A stretch of 64,000 nucleotides of DNA from an uncultured Actinomycetota bacterium (GCA_963743915.1 CAVURN010000005.1:352001-416000); one strand, 5' to 3'. Positions 36,264 through 64,000 are shown, numbered from the stretch's first letter. Translations and numbers: made by a program. The notes: generated by a model from the letters alone, not told the origin.

Positions 36264-36284
36264 CCACCAGGGGAGGAGAACTCA

Positions 36285-38328: not shown

Positions 38329-38525
38329 CAGATTCGCCAAACGCGCGGCCATGACCCTCCCGATGTGGCAGCTCAGCAGTCGTTCTGTCCCCATCTGCAG
38401 TGTCAGGCCCGGCACCCTGCTGTATCGCACAATCTCATCGCTCCCGAGGTACGGCATCGTTGCAGTTGCTCCATCACTCGCCGCCCAAGAACTGACGGTC
38501 AGTGCATCTGACGACAGGACGTTCC

Positions 38526-42411: not shown

Positions 42412-44015
42412 AGCGACTTCTCCTGTGAATACACGACGTCATTGAGGGTGTCCTCGGTCAACGGACCATTGACGCTTGCGACGATCTCGCCGCCACTGAC
42501 CACCACAGCGCGGTGGGCGACGGCCGCCAGCTCATCGAACTCAGACGAGACGACCAGCACGGCGGTCCCTGCCGCAGCGGCCGTGCGGATGAACTCATGG
42601 ATCTCGTTGCGAGCTACGACGTCTACCCCCTGAGTCGGCTCATCGAGCAAGAGCACCTCTGGGCGGCGTTGCAGCCACCGGGCCAGGACAACCTTCTGCT
42701 GGTTTCCCCCGGAGAGCGCGGACAACGGAGCTGAAGAACCGGGCGCACGGATTCCGAAACTTGCAATCAGGCCTTGGGCCACCCGCTTTTCTCTCAACGG
42801 ACTAATCCAGCCAACGCGCGAGTAATCGCTCAGACAGCTGATGGAGAGGTTCTCGGCAATACTCAACTCCAGAAACGCGGCCTCCCGCAGCCGGTCCTCA
42901 GGAACGAGTGCGATCCCCCGCTTCATGGCAGTTCGAACGTCCGACGGCGCCAATGGTCCGGCCTCGAGGATCACCTCGATGTCGTCTCTTGGCACTACTC
43001 CGAAGATCTGCTTGAGTAGTCTGGACCGACCGGACCCCAACAGGCCTGCTACACCGACTATTTCGCCGGCGCGCAGTACAAGTGCGTCAGTCACTTCGCC
43101 CCCGGGCGAAACTGGCCGCCGCAGTGTCAACACCGGTTCGGTGCCGCGTGACACAGGCACTCGGGAGCCATCGGTCGTATCATCCGTCGATAGCGTTGCA
43201 CTTGCAGGTTGACGGACGCGTCCTGAGGTGGCTCCAGTGATCCCCTCGACCAGGGAGTCATGTGTAATGCCCGTTCCAAACAGGCGCGACGCAACTCGAC
43301 CATTGCGCAGCACGGTCACCTCGTCAGCCAGTGAAATGACCTCATCCAGCCGGTGGGAGACGTAGATGATGGTCTGCCCCTCAGCCGAATACCGACGCAG
43401 AGCCGCCAGCAGAACGTCGACTTCATGCTTCGGCAGACTTGCCGTGGGTTCGTCGAGTACAAGAACTCCACGTTTGGCTTCATCCTGGTCCTGCAGCGCG
43501 CGAGCGATCGCAACCATCATCTGAGCCGCGGCCGATAGGCGGGACATCGGCATGTCCGGTTCGACGTGCAGCTCAAAACGACCAAGCACCTCGCGCGCCC
43601 GTGCCCTTTGAGCCGACCAAGCGATCGACCCCACCACCGTCCTCTCGAAACCCCGGCCAAGTGCCAAGTTTTCTGCCACTGTCAGGTCTGGGAACGTGGA
43701 GTTCTGCTGATGGACAAAGTGCAGCCCAGATGCCTTCGCGCGCACTGGAGAATGGTGCCGCGCATCCACCCAGTCTCCGCCCAGTGCGAAGCGGCCGTGG
43801 TCAGCCGCGACCACACCCGCGAGCATCTTGATGAGCGTCGACTTTCCTGATCCATTACCACCCATGAGGGCGTGGATCACACCTGCTGAGATCTCCAGAG
43901 ATACATCGTCTACTGCGCGAGTTGCCCCATACGACTTGCTGACGTTCTCGACAGCCAGAGCAATGGGTTGCCCAGTTAAGACACTCTCAGCCCTGGTAGT
44001 TGCGCTCCCGCTCAT
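42408..44015 (-). CDS. CUT2 (RbsA-like) two-domain ABC ATPase
   Basis: 'GGNGSGKST', 'LDEPT', 'LSGGNQQKV', 'DEPTQGVD'; start taken at MSGSATT. Confidence 0.92.
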   Translation of the reverse strand: MSGSATTRAESVLTGQPIALAVENVSKSYGATRAVDDVSLEISAGVIHALMGGNGSGKSTLIKMLAGVVAADHGRFALGGDWVDARHHSPVRAKASGLHFVHQQNSTFPDLTVAENLALGRGFERTVVGSIAWSAQRARAREVLGRFELHVEPDMPMSRLSAAAQMMVAIARALQDQDEAKRGVLVLDEPTASLPKHEVDVLLAALRRYSAEGQTIIYVSHRLDEVISLADEVTVLRNGRVASRLFGTGITHDSLVEGITGATSGRVRQPASATLSTDDTTDGSRVPVSRGTEPVLTLRRPVSPGGEVTDALVLRAGEIVGVAGLLGSGRSRLLKQIFGVVPRDDIEVILEAGPLAPSDVRTAMKRGIALVPEDRLREAAFLELSIAENLSISCLSDYSRVGWISPLREKRVAQGLIASFGIRAPGSSAPLSALSGGNQQKVVLARWLQRRPEVLLLDEPTQGVDVVARNEIHEFIRTAAAAGTAVLVVSSEFDELAAVAHRAVVVSGGEIVASVNGPLTEDTLNDVVYSQEKSL

Positions 44016-44121
44016 GGCCGCAACACTGACATGTCTGGAAGGGCTGCGTTCTGCACACCAGAACAAGAATGGACCTGCGATTGGTAGCAACTCTGGTGGC
44101 GTCCCTCTAGGCGGTGGCGCG

Positions 44122-46476
44122 TCACGCAACGGTCCCAGGGTTCGCACGACGCCAGAGATACTCTGGCGTCACAGGCACCTTGGTTGTCTGAATGTCGCCG
44201 CTGAAGGCATCGTCAACCGCCCCCGCTACCGCCGCCCCGACTGCGATCAAACCAACCTCGCCTAGCCCCTTCGCCCCGAACGGGTTGTTGGGGGTCGGTG
44301 CGTCCTCGGTCATGAAGAACTCGATGTCTGGAACTTCTTGAGCGCCCGGCAGTAAATAGTCCATAAACGACGTGGAGAGCGGTTGACCGTTCTCGTCGTA
44401 CAGGAACTCCTCGTACAGAGCGCCACCAATGCCCTGAGCGGCGGCACCGATCACCTGACCGCGCGTCATCATTGGGTTGATAGCGCGACCAGCTTCGGTG
44501 CTAGTGAAGAAACGACGAAGGGTAGGCGCGCCTGTCCCGCGATCGACCTCGATCTGAACCAAGGTCACGCCGTACGGATAGTTCATGTGATCGTCGAGGT
44601 AGACCGCCTGAGCCCCAAGGCCAGGCTCGTCTCCGGCGAGTCGGGCAGACCAACCGTCCCAGCGTGCTGCGATCTCCGCCAGGCTGAGGCCTTGACCAGC
44701 GGACCCGGTGACCACGATGTGGCCGTCCTCGAGCGTCAGGTCATCGACATCGGCCTCGAGCATTTCCGCCGCCAGCCGCTTCGCCTTGGCAACGGTGTCC
44801 AAAGCCGCCTGGCGCGCAGCACCACCGGCCATCACCGTCGACCGACTGGACCAGGAGCCGACACCTTCAGGCACTAGCTCAGTATCACCGTGCACGACAT
44901 CTATGAGCTCCACGTCGACCTGAAGCTCCTCAGCCACAATCTGAGCCAATACCGTTTCGATGCCTTGCCCAACAGACGAAGCACCCGTGCGAACTCGAAT
45001 GCGGCCGGAGGCATCAACATCCACGGCCCCGGTCTCATAGAGCCCGAGACCTGCCTTGTCCATCAGGATTCCAATCCCATTGCCAACCAGACGACCCTGG
45101 GCCTGAAGCTCGGAGGCCTCCTGCTGCCATGCGGCGAAGTCGACCGACTCCAATGCCTTGTCCAGGTGGTCCACCACATCGCCGGAGTCGAATGTGTAGG
45201 GCTCAAAGCAGATGTCCAAGCCGGGCGCGTAGGGCAGGTCCGTCTGGTCGAGGAGATTGCGCCGACGGATCTCTACCCGAGAGAGCCCGAGTTTCGCCGC
45301 TGCCTGGTCGAGGAGGCGCTCCCGGGCGAACGTCACTTCAAACCTGCCGGGGGCTCGATAGGCCGACAACGGGGTCTTGTTCGACAGCACCACGTGAAGT
45401 ACGCCGTCGAACGCCGGCACCCGATAGGGGCCCGGCACCATGCCTAGGGTGATATCGCTGCAGAGTGGCTCTGCCTGGCGCAGGTAGGCCCCGTGGTTGT
45501 GCCAGATCTCATCGGTCATCCCGAGCAGTCGACCGTCGGCGTCGAACGCAGCAGACATCTCGTGGACCTGCTCGCGAGCGTGTGCCGTTGCAACCATATG
45601 TTCGAGTCGGTCCTCGGTCCATTTCACGGGCCGCCCAAGTTTCATCGCTGCCCAACCGACCATGATGTACTCGGGAAACACACCGCCCTTGACGCCGAAG
45701 TTGCCGCCAATGTCGACATGCTTCATGCGAAGGTCGGCCAGCGGCAGTTCCAAGACTTCGGCGATCAGTCGCTGGGAGTCGTGAATGTGCACCGGGCCCC
45801 ACATGAAAAGCTGCTTTCGACCTCGGTCGGGCTCTGCCACACAACCTCGGGTCTCCATCGGTACGCCGGAGTGACGGCCCACCACATAGCGGCCCTTGAC
45901 GACGTGGGCGGCGTTCGCGAACGCGGATGCCACATCCCCGTATGCCTTCTCGATGCGGACGGCCTCGTTACTGAGACCTTCGAACAGTTGCTCCGCGTCC
46001 TCGGTCATGGCCGTTTGTGGATCGAGCACAGGGGGCAGTTGGTCGTAGGTGATGTCCACGAGCCCGGCCGCATCTTCGGCCAGGTAGGGCGTGTCGGCGA
46101 TGACTGCTGCTACGGGCTGCCCTACATAGCGCACGCGATCAGAGGCGAAGACTGGATGCAGGTAGTCCTCGATCTGCGGATACACCTCGTGGTACCCGAT
46201 TCTCTCGAGGGGGATGCTGGCCGAGATGTCCTCGGCGGTGATGACCAGCCGAACCCCAGGCGCTCGACGTGCCTCCTCTGTGTCGAGCGCGGTGATCCGA
46301 GCGTGCGCCTCACTGGACCGAACTACGACCAGGAAGAGCTGTCCATACACGTCGACGTCATCAACAAATCTGGCCTCGCCGCGCAGCAAGCGCGCGTCCT
46401 CTCGCCTTCGTACTGACTGCCCCACGTACCTCTTCGCCGAAGGGCCCAGCCCACCAGAAGCTCCAGGTCTACTCAC
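44122..46476 (-). CDS. kdhL: Ketone (6-hydroxypseudooxynicotine) dehydrogenase large molybdopterin subunit
   Basis: 'IGYHEVYPQIEDYLHPV', 'HNHGAYLRQAEPL', 'AYRAPGR', 'MDKAGLGLYETG', 'GVGSWSSRSTV', 'MNYPYGVTLVQIE' follow A. nicotinovorans KdhL as recalled; divergent from pnh. Confidence 0.85.
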   Translation of the reverse strand: MSRPGASGGLGPSAKRYVGQSVRRREDARLLRGEARFVDDVDVYGQLFLVVVRSSEAHARITALDTEEARRAPGVRLVITAEDISASIPLERIGYHEVYPQIEDYLHPVFASDRVRYVGQPVAAVIADTPYLAEDAAGLVDITYDQLPPVLDPQTAMTEDAEQLFEGLSNEAVRIEKAYGDVASAFANAAHVVKGRYVVGRHSGVPMETRGCVAEPDRGRKQLFMWGPVHIHDSQRLIAEVLELPLADLRMKHVDIGGNFGVKGGVFPEYIMVGWAAMKLGRPVKWTEDRLEHMVATAHAREQVHEMSAAFDADGRLLGMTDEIWHNHGAYLRQAEPLCSDITLGMVPGPYRVPAFDGVLHVVLSNKTPLSAYRAPGRFEVTFARERLLDQAAAKLGLSRVEIRRRNLLDQTDLPYAPGLDICFEPYTFDSGDVVDHLDKALESVDFAAWQQEASELQAQGRLVGNGIGILMDKAGLGLYETGAVDVDASGRIRVRTGASSVGQGIETVLAQIVAEELQVDVELIDVVHGDTELVPEGVGSWSSRSTVMAGGAARQAALDTVAKAKRLAAEMLEADVDDLTLEDGHIVVTGSAGQGLSLAEIAARWDGWSARLAGDEPGLGAQAVYLDDHMNYPYGVTLVQIEVDRGTGAPTLRRFFTSTEAGRAINPMMTRGQVIGAAAQGIGGALYEEFLYDENGQPLSTSFMDYLLPGAQEVPDIEFFMTEDAPTPNNPFGAKGLGEVGLIAVGAAVAGAVDDAFSGDIQTTKVPVTPEYLWRRANPGTVA

Positions 46477-46497
46477 AATGATCCCTGCCTCGCCGGT

Positions 46498-46518
46498 ATT
46501 GACAGCGGCAGTGTCAAT
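46498..46518. promoter_or_regulatory. Inverted repeat ATTGACA-N7-TGTCAAT in the kdhL/pnh divergent region
   Basis: Perfect 7-bp arms about 22 nt upstream of the likely kdhL GTG. Confidence 0.5.
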
Positions 46519-46712
46519 GTGGAGGCACGCGGCACGCTGCACGTACAGCGGCAAAAACAGTGTCCAGTTACGCAGGACATGGAGTGACCCCCCAGCCGAC
46601 GGGCGCTTTGCTCAATGGGTGTCAAAGGTCTCGTCCAGATTCGCGGAAGATGTAGACCGCCATTTGATGTGCGCTGGAGAGGATACAGCGCCAGCTGAGT
46701 GATGGAGACGAG

Positions 46713-47780
46713 ATGACAACCGTGACCCAAACTATCCCGACCCCCGAAGAAGAGATGCTGAACTGGGGTCGGCTACTTATGGATGGACTGCCCTTCGCCG
46801 ACCTTATCGCTGCCCGGGACCGGGCCCCCGAAATCACGTGGTTCGACTACTGGATGGGCAGAGCAGACGACTACGAGGCGATGGGTGATACAGCGCTCGC
46901 CGCCGGTCATTCGATCAGCGCGGGGTACTGGCTCTGGCTCGGCTCGATGGCCGCCCAGTACGCGCAGTTCCTGTGGTTCGATGAGCGTCGGCCACGTGGC
47001 CAGCGGCGCAAGGCGGAGTTGTATCACCGTGCGGCACCCCTCCTGGATCCGCCCGCCATTCGGATCGATCTCCCGATCGACGAGACCCTGATCATCGGCT
47101 ATCTCCGTCTGCCGAAGCATGCCGAGGGGCCAGCCTCCTGCGCAGTCCTCTTGGGGGGGCTGGAGAGCACCAAGGAGGAGAGCTACATGTTCGAGAACAT
47201 GCTCCTCGACCGTGGCGTCGCCACCTTCACGTTTGACGGTCCAGGCCAGGGCGAAATGTTCGACGACGTGGCCGTGTCCGGCGACTACGAGAGGTACGCC
47301 TCGCGAGTCCTCGATCACCTAGTCACCCGAACCGACATTGCGAGCAACCAGATTGGTGTACTCGGCCGAAGCCTTGGCGGACACTACGCCCTTCGCGCAG
47401 CATCCATGGATGACCGATTCCGCGCCTGCGTATCGTGGGGGGGCTTTGTGCAGATGGATGACTGGAGCTTCGAGTACCCGCTGACCAAGCAGAGTTGGCA
47501 ATACGTCACCAAGTCACCCGATCTTGCGACAGCACAGGTTCGGGTCCGCGAGGCGATCGATGTTCGGCCGGTGCTTCCCAATCTGCAGATCCCGACCTAC
47601 GTTCTCCATGGCGCAAAGGACGAAACACCGATATCGGAGATCGACTTGCTGCAGCAGTATGCGCACAGAGCTTCGATCGTGCTGGACGTGGAACCAGAGG
47701 GCGACCACTGCTGCCACAACCTAGGACCAGCACCACGAGTACGCATGGCGGACTGGCTCGCCTCGGAGTTACATCACTGA
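46713..47780 (+). CDS. pnh: 2,6-dihydroxypseudooxynicotine hydrolase (alpha/beta hydrolase, C-C cleavage)
   Basis: 'PEEEMLNWGRL', 'EITWFDYWM', 'AQYAQFLWFDERR', 'LGGLESTKEES', nucleophile 'GRSLGG', 'GDHCCHNLG..RVRMADWL'. Confidence 0.9.
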   Translation: MTTVTQTIPTPEEEMLNWGRLLMDGLPFADLIAARDRAPEITWFDYWMGRADDYEAMGDTALAAGHSISAGYWLWLGSMAAQYAQFLWFDERRPRGQRRKAELYHRAAPLLDPPAIRIDLPIDETLIIGYLRLPKHAEGPASCAVLLGGLESTKEESYMFENMLLDRGVATFTFDGPGQGEMFDDVAVSGDYERYASRVLDHLVTRTDIASNQIGVLGRSLGGHYALRAASMDDRFRACVSWGGFVQMDDWSFEYPLTKQSWQYVTKSPDLATAQVRVREAIDVRPVLPNLQIPTYVLHGAKDETPISEIDLLQQYAHRASIVLDVEPEGDHCCHNLGPAPRVRMADWLASELHH

Positions 47781-47834
47781 CGCGTTGGCATCCGACCGGC
47801 TGCGCGCAAGAGACGCAAAGAGCAGAGGAAGGTA

Positions 47835-48188
47835 ATGATGGACGAGATCTTGGCTGTCGAATCCGCGGCTGTTGAGCTTGAGACATGGCAGCCCGAGGGC
47901 GTGACGATCCTTGCAGGCGACCCAGCCGGACGCGGGTTCACGCTGTTCGAGGACTTTGAGCATGGCGCTCGTGGCACGGGTGTGTTCGAGTGCGATCCCG
48001 GGAAGACCACATACACGCTGGAGTACAACGAGATCATCTACGTGCTCGAGGGTGAGGTGACCATCGAGCTGGCAAATGGTTCCAAGGTCGACCTTCGCCC
48101 TGGGATGCAGGCATTCCTGCCCGCCGGCCACCTGTCGACTTGGACCTTCCACTCCAAGTTCCGCGAGGTGTGGGTCCTCGCGGACTGA
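47835..48188 (+). CDS. Cupin (DUF861/EutQ-like) protein
   Basis: 'GVFECDPG', 'EIIYVLEGEVTI', 'FLPAG...W'; GAGGAAGG RBS. Confidence 0.85.
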   Translation: MMDEILAVESAAVELETWQPEGVTILAGDPAGRGFTLFEDFEHGARGTGVFECDPGKTTYTLEYNEIIYVLEGEVTIELANGSKVDLRPGMQAFLPAGHLSTWTFHSKFREVWVLAD

Positions 48189-48204
48189 ATCCCGGAGGAT
48201 CAGC

Positions 48205-48245
48205 TCACGTGCCGCCCGGCGACCTTGATCCCGGGCGGCACGTGA
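48205..48245. terminator. Bidirectional hairpin between convergent cupin and nit genes
   Basis: Perfect 15-bp stem TCACGTGCCGCCCGG / CCGGGCGGCACGTGA. Confidence 0.75.
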
Positions 48246-48262
48246 CCCGAGCTGCACCGCAG

Positions 48263-49081
48263 CTACATTCGGCGGTCCCTCAGCACGGGAAAGTCCTCAC
48301 GCACCTGGCGCGCCAGATCGAGATCGAGTCGAGCGGTGAGTATCTCCTCATCGGAGTCAGCCTGGGCGACCACCTCGCCCGTCGGCGCGACTACTTGGCT
48401 GGACCCACCCAGCTCGACACCACAGTGGGTACCGGAACTGTTGCACTGCAGGACCCACGCCTGGTTCTCTACCGCTCGGGCTCGTCCAAGAAGCCGCCAG
48501 TGCTCCATTCGCGGCTTCGGCCACGCTGCCGGTATCAGCACTACCTCTGCGCCGCGCTCACCGAGTTTGCGAAAGAGCTCCGGGAAACGTAGGTCATAGC
48601 ACGTGGCAAGGCCGACTCGGGCAGAGCCCTCTGGACAGGCGAGGTCCGTCACTGTCAACTGGCTGCCCGCCTCCAAAATCTGTGGTTCACCCACTCCGAA
48701 GCCAAACCGGTGGATCTTGCGGTATGTCGAGTGGATCTCTCCCAACGGAGACAGCAGCACTGATGTGTTCCACAGGCCACGACCCTCGGCGCCCCTATGT
48801 GCGCCCTCGTCGGCCAACTCGATGATGGAGCCGGCATGAATCCAGCAATCCAACCTCGGGGCGAGTTCGGCGAGACGACCAATGGTGTGACCGTGGATAG
48901 ACTCGGCCGTCCTCGCCCACGAAGCCGAAGCGAAACCGCCGTGTGCCCACAGCTCGGGCAGAAGTAGCAGGTCGGGTCGGCTGATGTTCTGAATGGCAGC
49001 ACAGACCCGGTCTACTCGGTCTACCAGCGGCTCCTCGTCACCGTAGCCCACCTGGTAGAGCGTGACATCGATCCCACTCAT
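48263..49081 (-). CDS. nit: Carbon-nitrogen hydrolase (omega-amidase, Nit-like)
   Basis: Glu-Lys-Cys triad 'LPELW', 'YRKIH', 'TCYDLRFPE'; 'ARAVENQ'. Confidence 0.8.
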   Translation of the reverse strand: MSGIDVTLYQVGYGDEEPLVDRVDRVCAAIQNISRPDLLLLPELWAHGGFASASWARTAESIHGHTIGRLAELAPRLDCWIHAGSIIELADEGAHRGAEGRGLWNTSVLLSPLGEIHSTYRKIHRFGFGVGEPQILEAGSQLTVTDLACPEGSARVGLATCYDLRFPELFRKLGERGAEVVLIPAAWPKPRMEHWRLLGRARAVENQAWVLQCNSSGTHCGVELGGSSQVVAPTGEVVAQADSDEEILTARLDLDLARQVREDFPVLRDRRM

Positions 49082-52876: not shown

Positions 52877-52898
52877 ATCAGCTCCTGAGATCTTTGCG

Positions 52899-53630
52899 CT
52901 AGCGGACTCGGCGTCCGGCCGAGCGCGCTCTCGCAGCCGCGTATCCGGCGGCAACAACGCTCACGACAGCAGCCAACACGCTAACGAGGGCACTTCCGGT
53001 CGGCAGTGCCTTACTCCAGGTCAAGCCCCCAGCGAGCGCAAGGATGTCGAGAACCTCGTCGTCATTCCGATCTGATACCCGTCGAGGCTCAGGAGCCAAC
53101 GCAGGGTTGGCGGAGACGGACGTAACACCGTCCGGCGGCTGGGAATCAGATCCCGACACCGACGGTGCAGGTGGGGCAGAAGTGCCTTCAGACGCGACCA
53201 TCTCTTGGAGCCGCTCAGCAAACAGACTCATCAATGCAGCGCTCACCTCAACGAGCGCACCGCGACCGAACTGTGCGACCTTCCCAGTTAGCGCTAGGTC
53301 AGTGTCCACCATCACGCGGGTGCCGGCATTTTCGGCGGTCAGCGTCGCAGTGACGGTTGCCGTGACATTGCCCTGCCCGCGCACATCCTTGCCTCGCGCC
53401 GAAATGACGGCGGTGTGTGACTCCGGGTCCAGTGTGGTGAACGAAGCCACGCCCTTGTACTCGGAGGTAATCGGCCCCACTTTGATCTTGGCGCGCCCAT
53501 GGTACTCGTCACCATCGACGGAGGTGATCGATGCACCCGGCAGGCACGGCGCCACCTTCTCCAGGTTCGTGAGAAGGTCCCAGGCCTCCGTGGGTGAGAG
53601 CAGAACCTCGAACTCGTTGTGCAGCTGCAT
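52899..53630 (-). CDS. coxG: CoxG/SRPBCC protein with C-terminal membrane anchor
   Basis: 'VAPCLPGA', 'KVGPI...YKG', 'GKVAQFGRG'; hydrophobic tail. Confidence 0.88.
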   Translation of the reverse strand: MQLHNEFEVLLSPTEAWDLLTNLEKVAPCLPGASITSVDGDEYHGRAKIKVGPITSEYKGVASFTTLDPESHTAVISARGKDVRGQGNVTATVTATLTAENAGTRVMVDTDLALTGKVAQFGRGALVEVSAALMSLFAERLQEMVASEGTSAPPAPSVSGSDSQPPDGVTSVSANPALAPEPRRVSDRNDDEVLDILALAGGLTWSKALPTGSALVSVLAAVVSVVAAGYAAARARSAGRRVR

Positions 53631-54923: not shown

Positions 54924-55850
54924 TCAGCCGGCGTTCAGGGCCAAGGCAATGGGTCGAAGGGGTGCGCCGCTGGCGCCGCGGAGTCGAATCGGCGCCGCGA
55001 TGAGACAGAACTCATCCACACCGTCACGCGACAGTTCCTCAAGGTTGACCAGCTCGATCATGGGGACTCCGGCCTCGGCAAGGAAGTGGCAGTGGCCCGG
55101 TAGCCAATTGTCCCCATGCTGAGACGGAGCGACTTCGACACACTCCTGGTCCGCGCCGATGGCGGAAATCCCCTGGCCGGTCAGCCACTTCGCCGCCTCA
55201 AGGCCAAGCCCGGGTGGGTTCCCGAGAACCTTCGAACCATCCGGCCAGAAGCCCATCCGTCCGGTTCTGACCATGACCACGTCACCGGGCTCCAGGGCGA
55301 GGCCTGCCTTCACCAACGCATTCCTGCAGTCGTCGATCGTGATGGCGTAGGAGTCTGGTAGGCACTCCACGCCAAGGCCCTTGGCAACGTCGAGAAGCAC
55401 GCCTCTGGTGATGATGGGCGGGATGACCTCTGCACCACCCTTCGTCCAACCGCGGCTGCCGAGAGAGTCCTCCGCCGAAAATCCGTTGTAGATGTGTCCG
55501 TCCACACCAAAGTGGTTCAAGGAGTCGATGTGGGTCCCGGTATGGGTGTACATGAACACGACGTCGCCGGAGTAACAGACATGCCGATTAACCTCGCTCC
55601 CCGCACCGTTCAAGTTGTCCACGACGGTGCCGGAGGGGGTGTGGCTCATGAACAACTGGTAGCTCGGATCGCCAGCAGCCTGGAAACTGGGCATGCCGAC
55701 GAAGTAGTCGATGCTCAGGTCGTAGCTGCGCGTCCCGTCTACTCGAGCCAAGATGGCTGCCGACTTCTCGGGAGACAGATGATTGAGCGCTCCCAACTGG
55801 TCGTCAGGGCCCCAAGGGCTAGCGGCTACCTTGATGCCCGCCTTCGCCAT
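54924..55850 (-). CDS. Cyclase / kynurenine-formamidase-like metal-dependent hydrolase (pkc-like)
   Basis: 'PWGPDDQLGALN', metal motif 'HTGTHIDSLNH', 'RGVLLD', 'RTG', 'GAPLRPIA'. Confidence 0.85.
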   Translation of the reverse strand: MAKAGIKVAASPWGPDDQLGALNHLSPEKSAAILARVDGTRSYDLSIDYFVGMPSFQAAGDPSYQLFMSHTPSGTVVDNLNGAGSEVNRHVCYSGDVVFMYTHTGTHIDSLNHFGVDGHIYNGFSAEDSLGSRGWTKGGAEVIPPIITRGVLLDVAKGLGVECLPDSYAITIDDCRNALVKAGLALEPGDVVMVRTGRMGFWPDGSKVLGNPPGLGLEAAKWLTGQGISAIGADQECVEVAPSQHGDNWLPGHCHFLAEAGVPMIELVNLEELSRDGVDEFCLIAAPIRLRGASGAPLRPIALALNAG

Positions 55851-56149
55851 CAGACGTCCGTGCGCTGGAAGTCGACCACCGCGCGTGCCGAAAAGCGCGG
55901 CAGGAGCCGCTCGACGACATCGAGGTGGAAGGGGTCGTTCGAGTAGGCGTCCAGGTCCTCCCACGAGTCGAAATCCGTGATCAGGACGCCGTCGAACGGT
56001 TCGCCGTTCTCTCCTGGATCGCCCTGGTGGCTCCCCAGCTCCCAATGCTTGATCACCGGCATGGCTGTCGGCAGTGTGTTGAGAATCTCGATGATCTCCT
56101 CGTTGCTGTGCCCCTCGGCGACTTTCCATGAGAAGACATGCCGAATCAT
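55850..56149 (-). CDS. Dabb (stress-responsive A/B barrel) protein
   Basis: 'MIRHVFSWK', 'DFDSWEDLDAYSNDPFH', 'VVDF'; AGGAGAG RBS. Confidence 0.85.
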   Translation of the reverse strand: MIRHVFSWKVAEGHSNEEIIEILNTLPTAMPVIKHWELGSHQGDPGENGEPFDGVLITDFDSWEDLDAYSNDPFHLDVVERLLPRFSARAVVDFQRTDV

Positions 56150-56294: not shown

Positions 56295-57515
56295 CTAACG
56301 CCCGTCCTCGCCGGAGTCTGTCCCTTCGTCTGCCGCAGGTTCAGTCCCGTCATCCAGAATTTCGGCAAGCCGAAGAGCCACCGCGAGCTCGTCTCGGCGG
56401 CTGGCGATGGGGAAGCCCAACCGCTGCTCGATAGACCTCAGTCGGTAGGCAACGGTTCTCTCATGGATCTGAATACGGGCGGCGGTGGCTGCGGCGTTCT
56501 GCCCTGTGTCAAAGTATGCCCGCAACGTCTCGCGGAGAAGCTTCGTGCGAGCGTCGTTGACGCCGACGGCACCCAACTCGCCGATCATGAAATCACGTGC
56601 GGCTGGCACGTCCTGCAAGATGAGGCTCTCGAGGGCGACATCACGATAGGTGGTCACTGGCCGGCGACAGAGTTTCCCGACCCGGAAGGCCTGCCAGGCC
56701 TGCCGATGTCCGAGGCGAAAACCCTCCAACCCAAGGGCCGGGCCACCGAGTGCGAGATACGTGCCCGGAGGCGCCTGAATGGATGACCGATGATTCTCGA
56801 AGCTGGCCTCCAGGCGACTGCTGCCCAGCCATGCCAGCGAAGTACCACCAGGACCTTCTACAACGAGCAGCGAAGCATCGAGGAGCTTCGCCATTGCTTG
56901 TAGCGCCGTGCGGGCACTGGCACCCCATGCGACCACAGCAAGGTGCTGGAGTCGAAGGTTGTACCCCAACTGCTCGGTGTCCGTTGGCACACCGCTGAGC
57001 AGGTCTGTGACGATGGCTCGACGCTGGCGGTCACGACTGTGGAAGAAGTATTCCGACTTCTCTCGTTCGTAGGTCACCACGACGTCGTGCGTGATCCGGT
57101 CGTTCCATGCGAAGTGGTACCCCGCCGCCTGCTTGAGAACGGCGATCTGACGTGGGCCGTCAGGTACCACACGCACCGTTGTCTCGAGAATCCAGTTCCA
57201 CAGAACGACCTGACCGATTCGCCGCGTCAACAGCAAGTCGGTGAGTTCGACCCCCGCCTGAGCAGCAACCCTCGCCTCTTCAAGTGCCCCTTCGGGTGCG
57301 CCTTCGGGCAGGTGACGGGCGTGGCGGAGGCCGTGGATGATGCTGGTCAGTGCCCCAGTGATGCTGGGTAGCTCTGCCTCTAACAGCATCGGGTCGTTCC
57401 GACGATAGTAGTTGGGAGCTCCTGCGCGACTGCGTTCTTGAATTTCCACGCTGATGACCGACACATCGCCTGCAAGCGCGTCAGCCACCGCCCGTAGGTC
57501 TTGCTCGATCGACAT
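56295..57515 (-). CDS. PucR/CdaR family transcriptional regulator
   Basis: C-terminal HTH 'LRETLRAYF...AAATAARIQIHERTVAYRLRSIE'; 'GLEGFRLGHRQA'. Confidence 0.9.
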   Translation of the reverse strand: MSIEQDLRAVADALAGDVSVISVEIQERSRAGAPNYYRRNDPMLLEAELPSITGALTSIIHGLRHARHLPEGAPEGALEEARVAAQAGVELTDLLLTRRIGQVVLWNWILETTVRVVPDGPRQIAVLKQAAGYHFAWNDRITHDVVVTYEREKSEYFFHSRDRQRRAIVTDLLSGVPTDTEQLGYNLRLQHLAVVAWGASARTALQAMAKLLDASLLVVEGPGGTSLAWLGSSRLEASFENHRSSIQAPPGTYLALGGPALGLEGFRLGHRQAWQAFRVGKLCRRPVTTYRDVALESLILQDVPAARDFMIGELGAVGVNDARTKLLRETLRAYFDTGQNAAATAARIQIHERTVAYRLRSIEQRLGFPIASRRDELAVALRLAEILDDGTEPAADEGTDSGEDGR

Positions 57516-57607
57516 CACGGCAGTGTAGTCCCCGATAGAGGCCGCCAGCAGCGCAACAGGGAAGGACGTAGCCCTCGTCCGGGCTACGTCCTTCCCACAA
57601 GCGGGGG

Positions 57608-58774
57608 TCAGGAGACGCCCCAAACCTCCTTGTAGATGGACTGGTAGTCAAGGCTGGTTTCCCACTGTGTGCCCTCGGGAGGCAGGCCATTCTCGCCATC
57701 GAAGACGGCCACCCCCACACCCGAGGGCACTGTCTCCTCACCCGCAAGGAGACGGTTGACCATGTCGGCAGCAGCCCAGGTTTCGATGCCGGCGTCGTAG
57801 CCGAACCCGGCATCCTGGCCCTCGTTCTTGTGGATCAGGTCGACGTTAGCCGGGAACCCGCTGCCAGCGACCACCTCAAGTGAGTCATTGCGGCCAGATG
57901 ACATCACCGCGGCTGCTCCACCTGTCGTCATCAGGTCGTCGTAGGAGACCGAAATCCCATTGGCATCTGGGTTGCGCAGGAGTGCAGTCTCGAACTTCTG
58001 CTGCAGTGGAGGACCGAACTCCGCGGTCTTGACCTCAACGGTCTCCACCGGGCACGTCGGACACATCTCCTCCATCTTCGCCTGGAAACCGTCGCTGATG
58101 GCCTTCGTGATGATCAGTTCAGGAACGCTGAACTCGATGATATTGGCCTCCTCGCCGAGCCGTGAGAGAAGCCATACTGCTTGGGACGCGCCCAGGGCCT
58201 CCGCCCACTCCACGAAGTTGCCTTCCTGAAACTCCAGCGTACGCGCGAAGTACGACTCGGAGTTCGGATCCACGTCGCTGCAGTCGGCAGCCTCCTGAGA
58301 GACCACGGGGATCCCAGCCTGCTTGGCCTCCTCCAACGCGTTCTTCACCAGCGGGCAGTCGATCGAGAAGAGCCAGATGACATCGGCGTTGCTGGCGATA
58401 GCCCGCCGGATGCCCTCCTGGTACGCCGCTGGCTCGTACTTGCCGTCGTAGATGGACAGGTCCCAACCAAGCAGCTCAGCAACCTCCGTGGCCGCCTCGG
58501 CCTGCTTGGTGCCGGTTGGCGATTGCACTCCTGAGTTCACGATGGCCACACGCGCATCGGGTTGAGCGGCAGGCCCGCTGTCCGGGGGCAAGGCAAACGT
58601 CCCATCGCCAAACAACGCTTCGAGCTCCGTTGTCGCCTGCTCGGAGACCGCGTCGTCCGAGCCGGTCTGGGTGCCTTCGCCAGACTCGGTGCTGCACGCG
58701 GCAGCGGTGAGCACCGCGGCAAGCACCGCAGCGACGCCAAGCAGGCGTCTAGGACTTCTCATGAAGGGATGCAT
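57608..58774 (-). CDS. Periplasmic-binding-protein type I (RbsB-like) ABC lipoprotein
   Basis: Signal peptide with lipobox 'TAAAC'; 'LGWDLSIYDGK', 'AGIPVV', 'LLRNPDAN'. Confidence 0.85.
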   Translation of the reverse strand: MHPFMRSPRRLLGVAAVLAAVLTAAACSTESGEGTQTGSDDAVSEQATTELEALFGDGTFALPPDSGPAAQPDARVAIVNSGVQSPTGTKQAEAATEVAELLGWDLSIYDGKYEPAAYQEGIRRAIASNADVIWLFSIDCPLVKNALEEAKQAGIPVVSQEAADCSDVDPNSESYFARTLEFQEGNFVEWAEALGASQAVWLLSRLGEEANIIEFSVPELIITKAISDGFQAKMEEMCPTCPVETVEVKTAEFGPPLQQKFETALLRNPDANGISVSYDDLMTTGGAAAVMSSGRNDSLEVVAGSGFPANVDLIHKNEGQDAGFGYDAGIETWAAADMVNRLLAGEETVPSGVGVAVFDGENGLPPEGTQWETSLDYQSIYKEVWGVS

Positions 58775-59125: not shown

Positions 59126-61246
59126 TCAAGGCGCTGCAGTCACGGTGATTCCCTCGAGGTCAAGGCGAAGGGGCTCCCGCTTGTAGGGAAGCGCAACTGC
59201 CGGATCCGGTGAATCAAACTCGCGCGCCAACCGGTGGCCGTCGAACATCGCCTCGGCCATCGCGCGCGGAGAGGAGGCGTCGCCGACGCAGTAGACGCCA
59301 CGGATACCCGACTCAGACAAGCTTTTGCGGTCACTGACAAGCGCGTTGTACATCTCGTCCACAGGCACGCGCATCGTCACCAAGACAAGTGCCCCGGTCT
59401 CCACCCGGAATGATTCCCCATGTGCCCCGAGCCCGACGAGGTGTCTACGGTGTGCCGCAGTCAAGGTGACCTCGCGATACATGGCGACCCGGCTACGGTG
59501 GAGTGTCGTCCGAATCGCATTCCCCTCCAGCGTCAAGTCCGCCTCGGGCGCAACCTGCGCATGCGGTGTGACAAGAGCGACTTCGTACCCCTCGTCGGCA
59601 AGGAGCTGCGCAAGGCCGGCGCCCATGTAGTAGCCCTCGGTGTCGTATACCGTGACGTGGGTCCCCTCGGTAGGACGTCGGGCCTCCGCCATCAGTTGCT
59701 CAGGCGTGAATACCCAGTCGCCCCCTTCATCAATCCCTGGCAAGGACGCGTGTGTCCCGGGTGATGCTCCACTACGCAGCCAGCGTGCGCCTGTGGCCAC
59801 GACCACGTGCGAAGCGCCATAGTCAAGAACGTCGGTGGCATCCAACCTGGTCGACGGGATGTAGGCCAGGTTGGGGAGCTTGTCGATCTGGATCTGCCGA
59901 TGGTCGATGAACCGAGCCCACTCCCGCATGCCCGACAACTCAGCGACCGGTCGAAGGTGCCCGCCGAGCTGCTCTGCGGCGTCGACGAGGTGCACTCTCT
60001 CCGCCCCTCGTTTGGCCAGACCGATCGCTGCCTCCATGCCCGCCGGACCTGCTCCCACTATCAAGACACTGACCTCAGGATCAGCTAGGGGTTCGAAGCG
60101 CTCCGGGTGCCACCCGCGCCTGAACTCCTCCCCCGCGGTGGGGTTCTGAGCACAGGCGAGGTTGCCCCGGTCGAGGCTACTGATGCAGTAGTTGATCCCC
60201 GTGCATTCGCGGATGTCCTCGGTGCGACCCTCCTGGACCTTCTTCGGAAAGAAGGGGTCCGCGATGGACTGACGAGCGCTGCCGACGAGGTCTATCAGTC
60301 CGGATCGCACAGCCTGCGCCATGAGATCGGGGTTGGTCAGTCGTGACACTCCCACCACGGGCTTCGTGGCGGCCCGACGGACTCGTCCGATGAGCTCCAG
60401 GTTGTGGCCTTCAGGCCAGATCCGGGAGGGACTGATGTCGGTCTCCATGTCCAAGTGGGCGCCGAAGTTCAGGTCCCAGAGGTCGACCAGCGAGTCCCCC
60501 ATCCCGACAAGGGCCACAGTGTCCTCCACACTGTGTCCCCATGGGCCCTGGGTCTCCACCGCCAACCGTGTCGCGATGGCGCACTCGCCACCAACGGCCT
60601 CGCGCACCCGGCTGAGCGTCTCGAGCCAAAACCTCGCTCGATTCTCTAGCGTCCCGCCATACCTGTCGCTGCGCTGGTTGTGGAAGGGCGAGAGGAACTG
60701 GGCGAACAGGTAGCCATAACCCGCGAGCACTTCCACGATGTCGTAGCCGACTTCGCGAGCGCGCACTGCGGCGCCCACGAAGGCCCGCTGCACACGCTCG
60801 ATGTCGTCCAGGGTCATGATCTTCGGTGTCTCCGGCGGATACCACGGAGGGTGTCGTTCCGATGACAGGCCAGAGGCAGAGAGTGCGGGTTCACGTGAAT
60901 GCCGACGCAGCGACTGAACGCCGCCGTGGTGAAGCTCGATGCAGGCCAGCGCACCATGAGCGTGGACAGAATCCACCATCAACGTGTGACGAGAGGCGTC
61001 CTCCTCGTCCCAGAGATCGCTCGAATACCATGGCCACTCATCGCTGCTGGGGCCGACGCTGGAGAACTCTGTCGACACGGCCGCCCACCCGCCCTCCGCA
61101 CGAGCAGCCCGGTAAGCAGCCCAGGTGGCCGGACGGAAGGTTCCAAAGGCGGTGCCGTGGGGCACGTTGTAGAACCGATTGCGAAGGGTTTTGGGGCCGA
61201 CGACGACCGAATCGAAGAGGATCTTGTGATTGTCGGCTATCGGCAC
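59126..61246 (-). CDS. TMADH/histamine-dehydrogenase-family flavoprotein, degenerate cofactor motifs
   Basis: GTG at 61246; 'NRFYNVPHGT', 'YGGTLENRARF', 'SIADPF', 'IRECTGINYC', 'GEEFRRGWHPE', 'VGAGPAG', 'ATGA.W', 'GDA..PR'. Confidence 0.88.
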   Translation of the reverse strand: MPIADNHKILFDSVVVGPKTLRNRFYNVPHGTAFGTFRPATWAAYRAARAEGGWAAVSTEFSSVGPSSDEWPWYSSDLWDEEDASRHTLMVDSVHAHGALACIELHHGGVQSLRRHSREPALSASGLSSERHPPWYPPETPKIMTLDDIERVQRAFVGAAVRAREVGYDIVEVLAGYGYLFAQFLSPFHNQRSDRYGGTLENRARFWLETLSRVREAVGGECAIATRLAVETQGPWGHSVEDTVALVGMGDSLVDLWDLNFGAHLDMETDISPSRIWPEGHNLELIGRVRRAATKPVVGVSRLTNPDLMAQAVRSGLIDLVGSARQSIADPFFPKKVQEGRTEDIRECTGINYCISSLDRGNLACAQNPTAGEEFRRGWHPERFEPLADPEVSVLIVGAGPAGMEAAIGLAKRGAERVHLVDAAEQLGGHLRPVAELSGMREWARFIDHRQIQIDKLPNLAYIPSTRLDATDVLDYGASHVVVATGARWLRSGASPGTHASLPGIDEGGDWVFTPEQLMAEARRPTEGTHVTVYDTEGYYMGAGLAQLLADEGYEVALVTPHAQVAPEADLTLEGNAIRTTLHRSRVAMYREVTLTAAHRRHLVGLGAHGESFRVETGALVLVTMRVPVDEMYNALVSDRKSLSESGIRGVYCVGDASSPRAMAEAMFDGHRLAREFDSPDPAVALPYKREPLRLDLEGITVTAAP

Positions 61247-61334
61247 GAAGGGACCATCCTTGGTCAGGTCGGTTTGGCGGCCAGCGCGTGGCAGTCGTGG
61301 AACTCGGCCCTGGGCGTCGGCGCAGGTTCGGCGA

Positions 61335-63509
61335 TCACCTCGTCGGAGCCATCCTGCTTGTCTTCGATACTGGCGTGATTGGCAGTTTGCCAACCAGTTC
61401 GTCGTCGTAGTCCTCCTCGCGCCACCCAAGGATTCGGTGCTCTCGAATGAATGGCAGTGGGGTGGCGGGATCCGCCTCATCAATCTCCCTGGCGAGGCGG
61501 TGTCCCTCGAAAACCGCCTCGGCAATCACGCGCGGCTCAACGCAGTCACCGATGCGGAAGACATCAATTCCGTCCTCCCCGGGCCGCTGGTCATGGCTTG
61601 TCAACGCCTCATACAACCCGCTCCGCGAACGACGCTGCGTGACGAGGACAACGGCATCTGCTTGCCAGTCCGCTGTCTTGCCGGCGTGGTATGTGTGATG
61701 TCCGGTGACCAGACCCGGCCGGAGGGATGTCACAAGGTGGCTTGGGACTACCTCGATGCCCAGTTTCAGCAGACCGTGCATCACACGCTCACCCTCGTCG
61801 GTGAAGAACAGGTACGATCCGACTTGGTCGGCCGGGCAGACCAGCGTGACCTTCTTTCCTTCCAAGGCCAGCTTCTCGGCGATGCTGGATCCCATGAAAT
61901 AGCCGTCGCAGTCGTAGACGACGACGGATTCCCCGAGAATCGGCCGTTCCTCAACCATGAGGGATTCGGGCGTGTACACCATGGCTGCGTGTTCTTCGAC
62001 CCCGTTGATCGGCGCGTGGGTGATCGGGTTCATGCCTGTCGCATCCCATTCGGAGCCGGTCGCGACCACAACGATCTGTGCCCCGTAATCCAAGACCTCC
62101 TCGGCGGTGATGGGGTGGTCGGTCAAGACCGTGACGCCAGGAAGCTTGGCGAGCTGAGCCTCGCGGTACTCCACGACGCGCCGCCACGTACGGAGTCCGG
62201 GCAACTCGGAAACCCAGTTGACATGGCCACCGACCTCGGCGGCCCTGTCGACGAGGTGAACTTGTTCAAACCCGCGCTCGCCCAGGACCCGGGCGCACTC
62301 CATACCAGCGGGGCCGGCCCCCACGATAAGTACTGGCTCCTCAGACCTGGCGGACGGATTGAATCGCTCCGGATGCCAGCCGCGGCGATACTCCTCGCCA
62401 ACCGTCGCATTTTGGGTGCACACGATCCGGCCGCCCCCGTTGTTGAACCGGGAAACGCAGATATTGCAGCCTATGCACTCGCGGATATCCTCAGCGCGGC
62501 CTTCCAGGATCTTTGTCGGAATGAAGGGGTCTGCGATGGCGGGACGCGCCGCAGAGATGATGTCGATGACGCCATCACTCACCGCCTGCGCCATCAGTTG
62601 CGGGTCGGTGAACCGGCCAACAGCGGTGATGGGTTTCTTGGCATAGGGCCGGACCTGCTCGATGTAGTCCCGCTGCCAGAATGGCTGGAAGAATCGGGAC
62701 GAACTGCAGTCGTCCGACATGTGTCCGACCTGCATGTCCCACAGGTCAACGAGGTCATCGAGAAGCTCGACAACAGCAATTCCATCCTCATTGACCTTGA
62801 ACGCCTCTTCTGACTCATCGGTGAATGAGTCAAGACAGAAGCCAGCCACAATCGCACAGTCGTCGCCGACGGCCGCACGCACCTGCTCGACCGTTTCACG
62901 CCAGAATCTGACGCGATTCTCGATGGAACCACCGTACTCATCCGTGCGCTGGTTCCAGTAGCGCCAGAGGAATTGCAGCGGCAACGAGAACCCCGCGCGG
63001 GCGGAGATCTGAACGAGATCAAATCCGACGTTGCGTGCGCGGATGGCGGCGTCGACGTATGCCTTCTGAATCCGACGGATATCCTGCTTATCCATGGCGT
63101 AGCACGAGTGGCCGGACAATGGACTCGTCACCTGGGAAGGCCCGCCGGCTGGGAGACGGGTCCCAAATCCGCTGTGGTCCGGTCCCATGTAGACCAGCTG
63201 AACGCCTGCCAAGGCCCCGAACTCATGGACCCGGTCCACCATGAGTTGCAGATTGGCCTCGTCGCGACGATCAATCAATCGAGCCTGAACCCATGGCGCA
63301 TCATCACTCTCCGCGTCGACAGCGCAGTACTCGGTGTTGACGGCGGCCCAGCCACCTTCTGCACGCAGGCCCCGCAGATAGGCCTGGGCCCCGGGGTGGT
63401 CCACTCCGAGCCCGGAACAGTGAGGCGAAACGTAGAAACGATTGCGGAAAGTCTTCGGCCCAACCCGGATGGGCTCAAAGAGGGGCAGGTGACTCGGGTC
63501 GGTTGTCAT
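61335..63509 (-). CDS. TMADH/histamine-dehydrogenase-family flavoprotein (6-S-Cys-FMN Cys and [4Fe-4S] motif retained)
   Basis: 'LFEPIRVGPKTFRNRFYVSPHC', 'AEGGWAAVNTEYC', 'IRECIGCNIC...VCTQN', 'GEEYRRGWHPE', 'GHRLAREID...PLPFIRE'. Confidence 0.9.
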   Translation of the reverse strand: MTTDPSHLPLFEPIRVGPKTFRNRFYVSPHCSGLGVDHPGAQAYLRGLRAEGGWAAVNTEYCAVDAESDDAPWVQARLIDRRDEANLQLMVDRVHEFGALAGVQLVYMGPDHSGFGTRLPAGGPSQVTSPLSGHSCYAMDKQDIRRIQKAYVDAAIRARNVGFDLVQISARAGFSLPLQFLWRYWNQRTDEYGGSIENRVRFWRETVEQVRAAVGDDCAIVAGFCLDSFTDESEEAFKVNEDGIAVVELLDDLVDLWDMQVGHMSDDCSSSRFFQPFWQRDYIEQVRPYAKKPITAVGRFTDPQLMAQAVSDGVIDIISAARPAIADPFIPTKILEGRAEDIRECIGCNICVSRFNNGGGRIVCTQNATVGEEYRRGWHPERFNPSARSEEPVLIVGAGPAGMECARVLGERGFEQVHLVDRAAEVGGHVNWVSELPGLRTWRRVVEYREAQLAKLPGVTVLTDHPITAEEVLDYGAQIVVVATGSEWDATGMNPITHAPINGVEEHAAMVYTPESLMVEERPILGESVVVYDCDGYFMGSSIAEKLALEGKKVTLVCPADQVGSYLFFTDEGERVMHGLLKLGIEVVPSHLVTSLRPGLVTGHHTYHAGKTADWQADAVVLVTQRRSRSGLYEALTSHDQRPGEDGIDVFRIGDCVEPRVIAEAVFEGHRLAREIDEADPATPLPFIREHRILGWREEDYDDELVGKLPITPVSKTSRMAPTR

Positions 63510-63651: not shown

Positions 63652-64000
63652 TTATCCACGTTCATCGCCCATTGCCCATTCATAGCTCATCTGGACGAGT
63701 TGCCACACGACCTCGAGTTCAGCGCGATCCCGTGGACCGTAGACGAGAAAGGAGTCCTGAACTGGATGCGGTACGCCCCACCCGCCTCGGAGAGCGGCAT
63801 TTACTGCAGACCGAGGCAATGAAAGGTGGAGGCTGCCGTCGTGATGCGGATGCAAGTGCGCAAACTCTCGGCCCTTCTGAAAGCGTGCGGCAGGAGCTCG
63901 GCCGAACCCGTCGGCCAGGTGGAGGGCGCGAGCGTGCGACACGGAGACCAGCGTGGGAGCCATGTAGGTGAAGGGCAGGGAGCGCATCCTGAGCCACAGC
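63652..64000 (-). CDS. DUF5519 / luciferase-like domain protein, 5' end possibly outside window
   Basis: 'REFAHLHPHHDGSLHLSLP', 'GWGVPHP', 'VYGPRDRAELEVVWQLV'. Confidence 0.75.
   Translation of the reverse strand, partial: LWLRMRSLPFTYMAPTLVSVSHARALHLADGFGRAPAARFQKGREFAHLHPHHDGSLHLSLPRSAVNAALRGGWGVPHPVQDSFLVYGPRDRAELEVVWQLVQMSYEWAMGDERG

Follow-up and report, generated by a model that had tools for sequence, protein, structure and literature searches.

Two divergent TMADH-family flavoproteins accompany the chromosomal pyridine-pathway island of an uncultured Actinomycetota bacterium

The pyridine pathway is the textbook route of nicotine breakdown and has been worked out almost entirely on plasmid pAO1. 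Enzymes of the trimethylamine dehydrogenase (TMADH) family oxidize C-N bonds and pass the electrons from flavin mononucleotide (FMN) via an Fe-S cluster to an external carrier. Here, we describe two tandem genes of this family, T1 and T2, in a nicotine island of an uncultured Actinomycetota bacterium (genome G000; 2.92 Mb assembly of 5 contigs, 90% complete), located in a window (the whole stretch of DNA that was analyzed) of 64,000 nucleotides (C5:352001-416000). The chromosomal version of the pathway in Nocardioides, Flexivirga, and G000 always comes with additional Fe-S flavoprotein dehydrogenases, either one or two, that are absent from pAO1. T1 and T2 are probably uncharacterized enzymes of the nicotine pathway because they always travel with nicotine genes in related bacteria, and they are probably not simple stand-ins for the 6-hydroxynicotine oxidase 6HLNO. 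We found nothing on these dehydrogenases in the searchable literature: its full text has no match for "6-hydroxynicotine dehydrogenase" or "methylaminobutyrate dehydrogenase," and the accessible portions of two papers on nicotine (nic) gene clusters (PMC10494377 and PMC13651117) mention neither trimethylamine nor a flavin oxidoreductase.

The best-scoring solved relative of both proteins is TMADH of Methylophilus methylotrophus (PDB 1djn and 2tmd), which has the same three-domain layout and shares with T2 both Cys30, the flavin link, and a four-cysteine Fe-S motif. TMADH differs by its aromatic bowl and YGAH motif, which are absent from T1 and T2, by Arg222, which is not found in T2, and by Cys30 and Cys348, which are not found in T1. 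Histamine dehydrogenase (PDB 3k30 and 6de6) belongs to the same family and has the same cofactor set, but it keeps the YGAH motif, acts on a primary amine, and has no link to nicotine genes. PDB entry 6l6j is presumably Pno of P. geniculata N1, an identity that is unconfirmed. Pno of A. tumefaciens S33 is another family member and, according to part of the published account (PMC7688666), holds its FMN non-covalently, as predicted for T1 (Ala or Gly at position 30), so that Cys30 is not strictly group-defining. This enzyme is more distant from T1 and T2 than TMADH and serves the Proteobacterial VPP pathway (a variant on both the pyridine and the pyrrolidine pathway) with etfAB and EtfQO in the cluster, none of which lies in the G000 island. 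The amine oxidases MAO and MABO of pAO1, whose steps T2 is proposed to parallel, have unrelated folds (MAO and DAO-GcvT families) and use O2, and a MABO-like gene coexists with T1/T2 in most clusters. The 6HLNO of pAO1 likewise belongs to an unrelated family, and its slot upstream of genes for a periplasmic binding protein (SBP) and a PucR-type regulator is held by T2-T1 in G000.

The two genes, assigned by profile matches, TMADH alignment, and orthologs, are:
59126..61246, minus strand: T1, TMADH-family flavoprotein of 706 amino acids
61335..63533, minus strand: T2, TMADH-family flavoprotein of 732 amino acids

Their open reading frames (ORFs) extend over 59126-61525 and 61335-63596 without interruption. 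The starts, placed by TMADH comparison and upstream ribosome-binding sites, are likely GTG 61246 for T1 (AAGGA 5' of the start) and ATG 63533 for T2 (GAAAGGAAG 5' of the start), leaving 88 bases between the genes; position 63509, the outer limit of the pair in an original prediction made from the sequence alone, is a later in-frame ATG. That prediction had described two full-length, uninterrupted, and divergent TMADH-family genes, and we arrive at the same description: both frames are open, the proteins are 44% identical to each other (311/700 residues), and each aligns with TMADH end to end. Both consist of an Oxidored_FMN barrel (PF00724; E 1e-69 in T1 and 2e-68 in T2) followed by Pyr_redox_2 and OYE-like second domains (PF07992 and PF22620). 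Pairwise ratios of nonsynonymous to synonymous substitutions lie at 0.11-0.16 for T1 and 0.07-0.12 for T2 and are rough because synonymous divergence exceeds 1; both genes are under purifying selection. A scan for promoters and terminators gave nothing beyond chance level.

We placed T1 and T2 among the characterized members by bit scores against PDB sequences and by pairwise alignments. Scores are highest against TMADH (569 for T1, E 1e-169; 644 for T2, E 1e-192; residues 2-710 of 729 covered), followed by histamine dehydrogenase as second-best solved relative (478 and 504), 6l6j (410 and 468), and dienoyl-CoA reductase (127 and 133). Both proteins combine the FMN TIM barrel with two dinucleotide-fold domains in an end-to-end alignment, as is characteristic of the group. 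By these comparisons, T1 and T2 are two separate members, each kept by selection, of the TMADH / dimethylamine dehydrogenase / histamine dehydrogenase group.

The cofactor residues distinguish the two proteins. T2 has a cysteine at the Cys30 position and all four Fe-S cysteines (345, 348, 351, and 364; CxxCxxC...C), while T1 has a glycine at position 30, for which we predict non-covalent FMN, and only three of the four cysteines (CxGINxC...C), with isoleucine in place of Cys348. This replacement is found in 21/21 aligned proteins of the T1 clade (P0121-P0141) and in P0148. The three-cysteine motif also extends to a wider T1 subfamily (P0142-P0154) that includes members with Cys30 and YGGH, and because it is common to this wider subfamily we regard it as a subfamily trait rather than decay.

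In TMADH, we take Tyr60, Trp264, and Trp355 to form an aromatic bowl and Tyr169, His172, and Asp267 to form a triad. T2 keeps only Tyr60 and Asp267 of these residues and T1 only Asp267. Tyr60 is replaced by Phe in T1 and Trp355 by Phe in T2 and Leu in T1, while at Trp264 the T2 loop is three residues shorter and has no Trp, and T1 has Met where its orthologs have Trp. The YGAH motif spanning Tyr169 to His172 reads SARA in T2 (AARE in most T2 orthologs) and LAGY in T1; Arg222 is kept in T1 and is Gly in T2, which has an Arg at position 171 instead. Since neither the aromatic bowl nor YGAH is kept, trimethylamine is an unlikely substrate of T1 or T2, and the active site of T2 is rebuilt compared to TMADH. 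At the ILNADTYFMA segment of TMADH in the third domain, T1 reads VYDTEGYYMG and T2 reads VYDCDGYFMG, each like TMADH without a GxGxxG motif. This domain is a vestigial ADP-type dinucleotide domain, and the missing glycine motif argues against an NAD(P)H-linked reductase.

The association with nicotine genes emerges from relatives. Close T2 orthologs (74-82% identity) are found in Nocardioides, Flexivirga, and a Rhodococcus, followed by two proteins at 62-63% and all others at no more than 57%; those of T1 (69-80%) are found in Leekyejoonella and several Nocardioides, followed by a group at 58-61% and the rest at no more than 55%. All seven close T2 loci of a genome scan (76-81%) lie in or beside nic genes. 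No T2 homolog was found in the whole pAO1 record at E 0.001, and no Arthrobacter-type plasmid is among the best 40 of 222 plasmid records that match T2 at E 1e-50 or better. In a fixed sample of 401 Nocardioides genomes, which are related to each other so that we give no statistic, ndhL orthologs (76-82%) occur in 9, and these same 9 genomes carry orthologs of 6HLNO (55-58% to pAO1) and T1 (68-76%; next-best matches 49-50%); 7 of them also carry T2 (74-83%; next-best match 49%). None of the four genes occurs in the other 392. The nicotine cluster of the chromosomal Nocardioides type, in which 6HLNO and a MABO-like gene are also found, has T1 and T2 as fixed companions.

It follows from the co-occurrence with 6HLNO in 9/9 (T1) and 7/9 (T2) of these nic genomes that the two enzymes are not general substitutes for 6HLNO. 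The original prediction of T1 and T2 as general stand-ins for 6HLNO, MABO, or MAO can accordingly not be upheld, also in view of a MABO-like gene just past the window in G000. Its narrower form, that they stand where 6HLNO would be expected, applies to G000, where they hold this slot in an assembly without 6HLNO. Among genomes beyond the sample of 401, G003 and G006 carry 6HLNO and G004 lacks it. Flexivirga G003 carries T2 but not T1; conversely, G148 and G163 carry T1, and no part of their assemblies contains T2. This makes an obligate T1-T2 heterodimer unlikely, a heterodimer having been one of the options originally offered. As a separate observation, G092 has two T2 copies (L044:8248-10110 and L046:14949-17102), one at 83% and the other at 74% identity to T2 of G000, the latter aligned from residue 107 only.

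The gene order that recurs among Nocardioides begins with EasG-like, T2, HbpS-like, (LysR, GabT-like aminotransferase, succinate semialdehyde dehydrogenase [SSADH]), DAO_a, T1, and PF17648. It continues with (MAO), 6HLNO, SBP, PucR, Dabb, cyclase, DHPH, SRPBCC, ndhMSL, and CN-hydrolase, and then with cupin, DHPONH, kdhL, ABC transporter, PucR, and kdhMS. Compared to pAO1, this type of cluster has no 6HDNO and usually no MAO, and it adds T1, T2, DAO-family, EasG-like, and other genes. The G000 island is rearranged: its order of PF17648, T2, T1, SBP, PucR, Dabb-cyclase, DHPH, and onward puts T2-T1 in the place of MAO/6HLNO, directly upstream of SBP and PucR. A module of aminotransferase, aldehyde dehydrogenase, and family-III CoA-transferase genes lies in or beside the nic genes of G003 (L033:13104-18383), there also with an acyl-CoA dehydrogenase, and of G001 (L027:3663-7632).

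We prefer to read T2 as a gamma-N-methylaminobutyrate dehydrogenase that does not depend on O2, and T1 as an enzyme for a second amine; taken as a whole we hold this statement tentatively, as plausible yet somewhat short of probable. T1 and T2 would oxidize C-N bonds of pathway amines, and the electrons would travel from FMN to the Fe-S cluster and on to an external carrier instead of O2, with the housekeeping electron-transfer flavoprotein (ETF) encoded at C1:110395-111598 as the obvious candidate. T2 would act on gamma-N-methylaminobutyrate, the open-chain secondary methylamine released by the 2,6-dihydroxypseudooxynicotine hydrolase DHPONH, and would so correspond to the amine oxidase MAO of pAO1 but with a link to the respiratory chain; its product, succinate semialdehyde or gamma-aminobutyrate, would feed into the SSADH/GabT enzymes encoded beside T2 in relatives. 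T1, with its predicted non-covalent FMN and three-cysteine cluster motif, would take a second amine, and the two would not form an obligate heterodimer.

We favor this role for T2 because of how MAO and T2 are distributed and because of the proximity of aminotransferase and SSADH genes. MAO orthologs were surveyed with pAO1 MAO in G001-G004 and G006 and with Nocardioides MAO in G005, G025, G181, G092, and G148. None was found in the 5 T2-bearing genomes of the former set or in G005, G025, and G181 (0/3) of the latter; G092 combines a broken MAO with an intact T2, and G148 has an intact MAO but no T2 anywhere in its assembly. Every nic genome examined has at least one of the two genes, and T2 is missing only where MAO is intact. 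Furthermore, T2 lies within about 5 kb of a class-III aminotransferase and an SSADH/aldehyde dehydrogenase gene in G002, G006, G025, L053, G003, and G001, and three separate lineages show such proximity; similarly, MAO of pAO1 adjoins an SSADH (SAD) gene. The nearest characterized relatives of T2 dealkylate methylamines, which we count in favor of this substrate, and Pno in particular strips methylamine from the CH3-NH-(CH2)3- chain of 6-hydroxypseudooxynicotine with ETF as acceptor, according to part of the published account (PMC7688666). N-methyl-gamma-aminobutyrate had been named as an alternative in the original prediction and is, for T2, the option that best fits the MAO/T2 pattern and the gabT/SSADH proximity.

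Several observations weigh against a gamma-N-methylaminobutyrate dehydrogenase. Seven of the first 8 nic genomes (G000-G007) encode a MABO-like protein, and gamma-N-methylaminobutyrate therefore already has a route for which T2 is not needed. G007 has an intact MAO together with T2, the only such genome. The independent lineages behind the MAO/T2 pattern are few in number, with G148 and G163 appearing almost identical, and the pattern combines two MAO queries. GabT and SAD genes may lie near T2 only through shared membership in the cluster, and the G000 island has neither a gabT or SSADH gene nor an ETF gene. The T1 and T2 pockets differ from those of every characterized family member, which makes the analogy to TMADH and Pno weak; all functional steps proposed here draw on genomic context, and the lack of 6HLNO in G000 and G004 leaves room for an action on 6-hydroxynicotine.

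This last idea, that T2, T1, or both are O2-independent dehydrogenases of the pyrrolidine ring, oxidizing (R)-6-hydroxynicotine in the role of 6HDNO or, in the 6HLNO-less lineage of G000, also the (S)-enantiomer, seems unlikely to us but has some appeal. G000 and G004 are the sole nic genomes examined without 6HLNO, T2-T1 of G000 fill the 6HLNO slot upstream of SBP and PucR, and the T2 proteins of these genomes form one clade with two metagenomic sequences (support 100/99). Only six fixed differences separate this clade from 15 other T2 orthologs, four of them in active-site loops at the TMADH equivalents 27, 169, 172, and 261. The D-enantiomer step is without an assigned enzyme, given that the nic regions of 5/5 genomes have no 6HDNO ortholog, and five Nocardioides genomes have T1 at a distance of 1-6 kb from 6HLNO. 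On the other hand, T1 and T2 occur together with 6HLNO in 9/9 and 7/9 Nocardioides nic genomes, and we know of no TMADH-family member that oxidizes a cyclic tertiary amine. The 6HLNO gene of G000 may simply be lost, given an assembly of 90% completeness and an island in which XdhC, DAO_b, and one MoxR copy are disrupted; G004 also has truncated genes and insertion sequence (IS) elements. The clade represents one evolutionary event, and both islands are damaged. More specifically, it is a doubtful though conceivable scenario that 6HLNO was lost in the G000/G004 island lineage and T2 took over 6-hydroxynicotine oxidation; T2 of this lineage has a Glu-to-Ala change at the His172 equivalent and, in active-site loops, three more changes that are fixed. 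The pyridine pathway would then open the ring by means of a respiratory-chain-linked Fe-S flavoprotein dehydrogenase instead of an H2O2-producing oxidase, and T2 would become the first enzyme of the TMADH family with a known action on a cyclic tertiary amine.

Within the TMADH family, Pno alone is known from nicotine catabolism, and T1 or T2 could be imagined to remove methylamine from 6-hydroxy- or 2,6-dihydroxypseudooxynicotine in a similar, VPP-like shunt beside Kdh and DHPONH. T1 lacks the flavin-linking cysteine like the probable Pno structure 6l6j, and aldehyde dehydrogenase genes are nearby in relatives. We consider this quite improbable: TMADH scores (569 and 644 bits) exceed those against 6l6j (410 and 468), Kdh and DHPONH as consumers of the same intermediates are intact in the island, and unlike the S33 cluster the island is without etfAB and EtfQO. 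Another co-travelling amine, e.g., methylamine from the pathway or intermediates of nornicotine, anabasine, or cotinine, would fit the observation that the T1 and T2 pockets are unlike those of any characterized member. The aminotransferase, aldehyde dehydrogenase, CoA-transferase, and acyl-CoA dehydrogenase genes beside the nic genes of G001/G003 would match a C5 amino acid, for instance 5-aminovalerate, and thereby hint that alkaloids of the anabasine type are broken down, and a Nocardioides strain degrades cotinine via 6-hydroxy-3-succinoylpyridine, as described in part of PMC10649934. However, it is the ndh and 6HLNO set with which T1 and T2 strictly co-occur, and such a substrate is in our view rather doubtful. 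It is finally highly improbable that T1 and T2 are NAD(P)H-linked reductases in the OYE (old yellow enzyme) / 2-enoate reductase group that act on ring-cleavage products or nicotine blue. Their architecture is common to dienoyl-CoA reductase, BaiCD, and bilirubin reductase, but scores against those enzymes are 127-215 bits versus 569-644 for TMADH, a dinucleotide-binding glycine motif is missing from the third domain just as it is in TMADH, and a neighboring gene already codes for a WrbA-like quinone reductase.

As originally noted, the window contains no homolog of 6HLNO, 6HDNO, MABO, or MAO; its sole Amino_oxidase match (28677-30503) was dropped as an amine oxidase because the protein is CrtO/CrtI-like. 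Beyond the window, where such oxidases and etfAB had been thought worth looking for, the result is mixed. 6HLNO has no match in the whole 90%-complete assembly by tblastn with either the pAO1 query (E 1e-5) or a Nocardioides ortholog (E 1e-8). A MABO-like gene with 40% identity to pAO1 MABO lies at C5:419517-421898 (window-equivalent 67517-69898), 4 kb past the window end, and a 44% homolog of MAO is encoded on contig C1 between amidase and biotin-carboxylase genes, outside the island. With the pAO1 6HDNO query sequence, located by Pfam search, the 5 genomes yielded no ortholog in their nic regions and only paralogs of 27-44% identity, all elsewhere. There is no etfAB in the island, and the pair of housekeeping etfBA genes mentioned above (C1:110395-111598) lies outside of it. 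We dropped an explanation of the missing 6HLNO by a deletion between DAO and XdhC (by analogy with G003), given that G092 and G148 show a separate DAO_b-XdhC-MoxR operon without 6HLNO.

The island itself was examined by tblastn of pAO1 proteins against the whole G000 assembly. In agreement with the original prediction, T1 and T2 lie in a low-GC block (GC content 0.61-0.64 from 38000 to 64000 versus 0.69-0.73 up to position 28000) upstream of SBP and PucR, and they are uncharacterized TMADH-family members in a pyridine-pathway nicotine island of about 62% GC with pAO1-like ndh, kdh, DHPONH, and DHPH genes. Identities to pAO1 are 62% for NdhL, 59% for NdhS, and 46% for NdhM, 62% for both KdhL and KdhS and 41% for KdhM, 53% for both DHPONH and DHPH, 76% for the cyclase, 62% for Dabb, and 49% for the cupin; the set of ndhLMS, kdhLMS, DHPONH, and DHPH, at 41-62%, spans C5:391744-406886. 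SRPBCC, CN-hydrolase, MoxR, VWA, and XdhC proteins gave further matches, and all matches to pAO1 proteins fall within C5:388-419 kb. In window coordinates, the other features are:
63652..64000, minus strand: 3' portion of a small gene that encodes a PF17648 ("Luciferase domain") protein and lies directly upstream of T2, extending past the window end
57608..58774, minus strand: periplasmic binding protein (SBP), PF13407, downstream of T1; its 62-66% orthologs follow 6HLNO in Nocardioides
56295..57623, minus strand: PucR-type regulator (profile and pAO1 tblastn)
54924..56129, minus strand: Dabb-cyclase fusion ORF of 401 amino acids
53714..54898, minus strand: 2,6-dihydroxypyridine 3-monooxygenase homolog (DHPH), 53% to pAO1 DhpH
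52899..53630, minus strand: CoxG/SRPBCC protein (profile and pAO1 tblastn)
52019-52957, minus strand: ndhM, nicotine dehydrogenase homolog
51504-52022, minus strand: ndhS, nicotine dehydrogenase homolog
49078-51507, minus strand: ndhL, nicotine dehydrogenase homolog
48263..49081, minus strand: carbon-nitrogen hydrolase, omega-amidase-like (profile and pAO1 tblastn)
47769..48257, minus strand: cupin protein
46713..47780, plus strand: 2,6-dihydroxypseudooxynicotine hydrolase homolog (DHPONH)
44122..46554, minus strand: kdhL, ketone dehydrogenase large subunit
41332..44147, minus strand: ABC transporter permease and ATPase (profile matches)
40196-41098, minus strand: kdhM (profile and pAO1 tblastn)
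39687-40199, minus strand: kdhS (profile and pAO1 tblastn)
38502..39584, plus strand: NmrA/EasG-like oxidoreductase (TIGR03649 at 169 bits, below cut-off)
34808..38319, plus strand: disrupted DAO_b-XdhC-MoxR operon at the left end of the island, its frames broken by frameshifts or stops

Dabb and cyclase form one ORF here and in several Nocardioides genomes and are two adjacent genes in pAO1. The EasG-like gene is found directly upstream of T2 in at least 4 Nocardioides loci (L006, L009, L020, and L053, around 8500-9600), where a HbpS/GlcG-like gene that is absent from G000 follows EasG-T2. The PF17648 protein (L002:4652-5101) is a constant neighbor of T1, T2, MAO, or 6HLNO in annotated nic clusters; no homolog was detected in the nic regions of Flexivirga (G003) and G004, and the protein has no match in NCBIfam or, at E 1, in PDB. 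The DAO-family neighbors likewise gave no useful PDB match.

At the left end, the best alignment of DAO_b contains 5 in-frame stops, a segment of XdhC between 37074 and 37242 is out of frame, and MoxR is split over three frames, while the same operon is intact in G092 and G148. These breaks could be assembly errors. The disrupted XdhC is the sole homolog in the G000 assembly, and if it is truly broken this raises doubt about the supply of molybdenum cofactor to Ndh and Kdh. To the right, the cluster runs off the window as expected: past 64000, the same strand carries the rest of the PF17648 gene, WrbA-like quinone reductase, CoxE-like, MoxR-like, and MobA-like genes, and then the MABO-like DAO-GcvT protein of 822 amino acids and IS transposases. 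The right edge is marked by IS481/IS3-type transposase genes (L002:12337-14594) after two ORFs without Pfam match. None of 13 same-genus genomes has an ndhL ortholog, from which we conclude that the island was acquired horizontally; the shift in GC content and the IS genes that flank the island support this view.

The locus is found well beyond this assembly. At least 95% of sampled words of the T1-T2 stretch were present in 14 DNA sequencing runs from 13 studies, four of which may be the source of the G000 assembly, with samples labelled as sediment, soil, freshwater, and activated sludge. RNA libraries of four runs from three sludge studies contain short contigs at least 99% identical to T1, T2, SBP, and ndh genes, which show presence and not proven transcription. 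A metagenome scan yielded only 2 more close T2 loci, both of the AARE type. The near-identical copies in sediment, soil, and sludge metagenomes of many studies point to genes that are environmentally common. If T1 and T2 are O2-independent amine dehydrogenases, the electron balance of the pathway would change toward less H2O2 and more respiratory energy, and unusual active sites would be added to a family used in biosensing and biocatalysis.

Outside the island, two further arrangements in the window deserve mention. At 27706-30503 on the plus strand, an ORF for a GcvT-like aminomethyltransferase overlaps the start of the ORF for the CrtO/CrtI-like flavoprotein (608 amino acids). At 30489-31939 on the minus strand, an MFS transporter is encoded by two abutting ORFs (30489-31142 and 31142-31939), which may reflect a frameshift.

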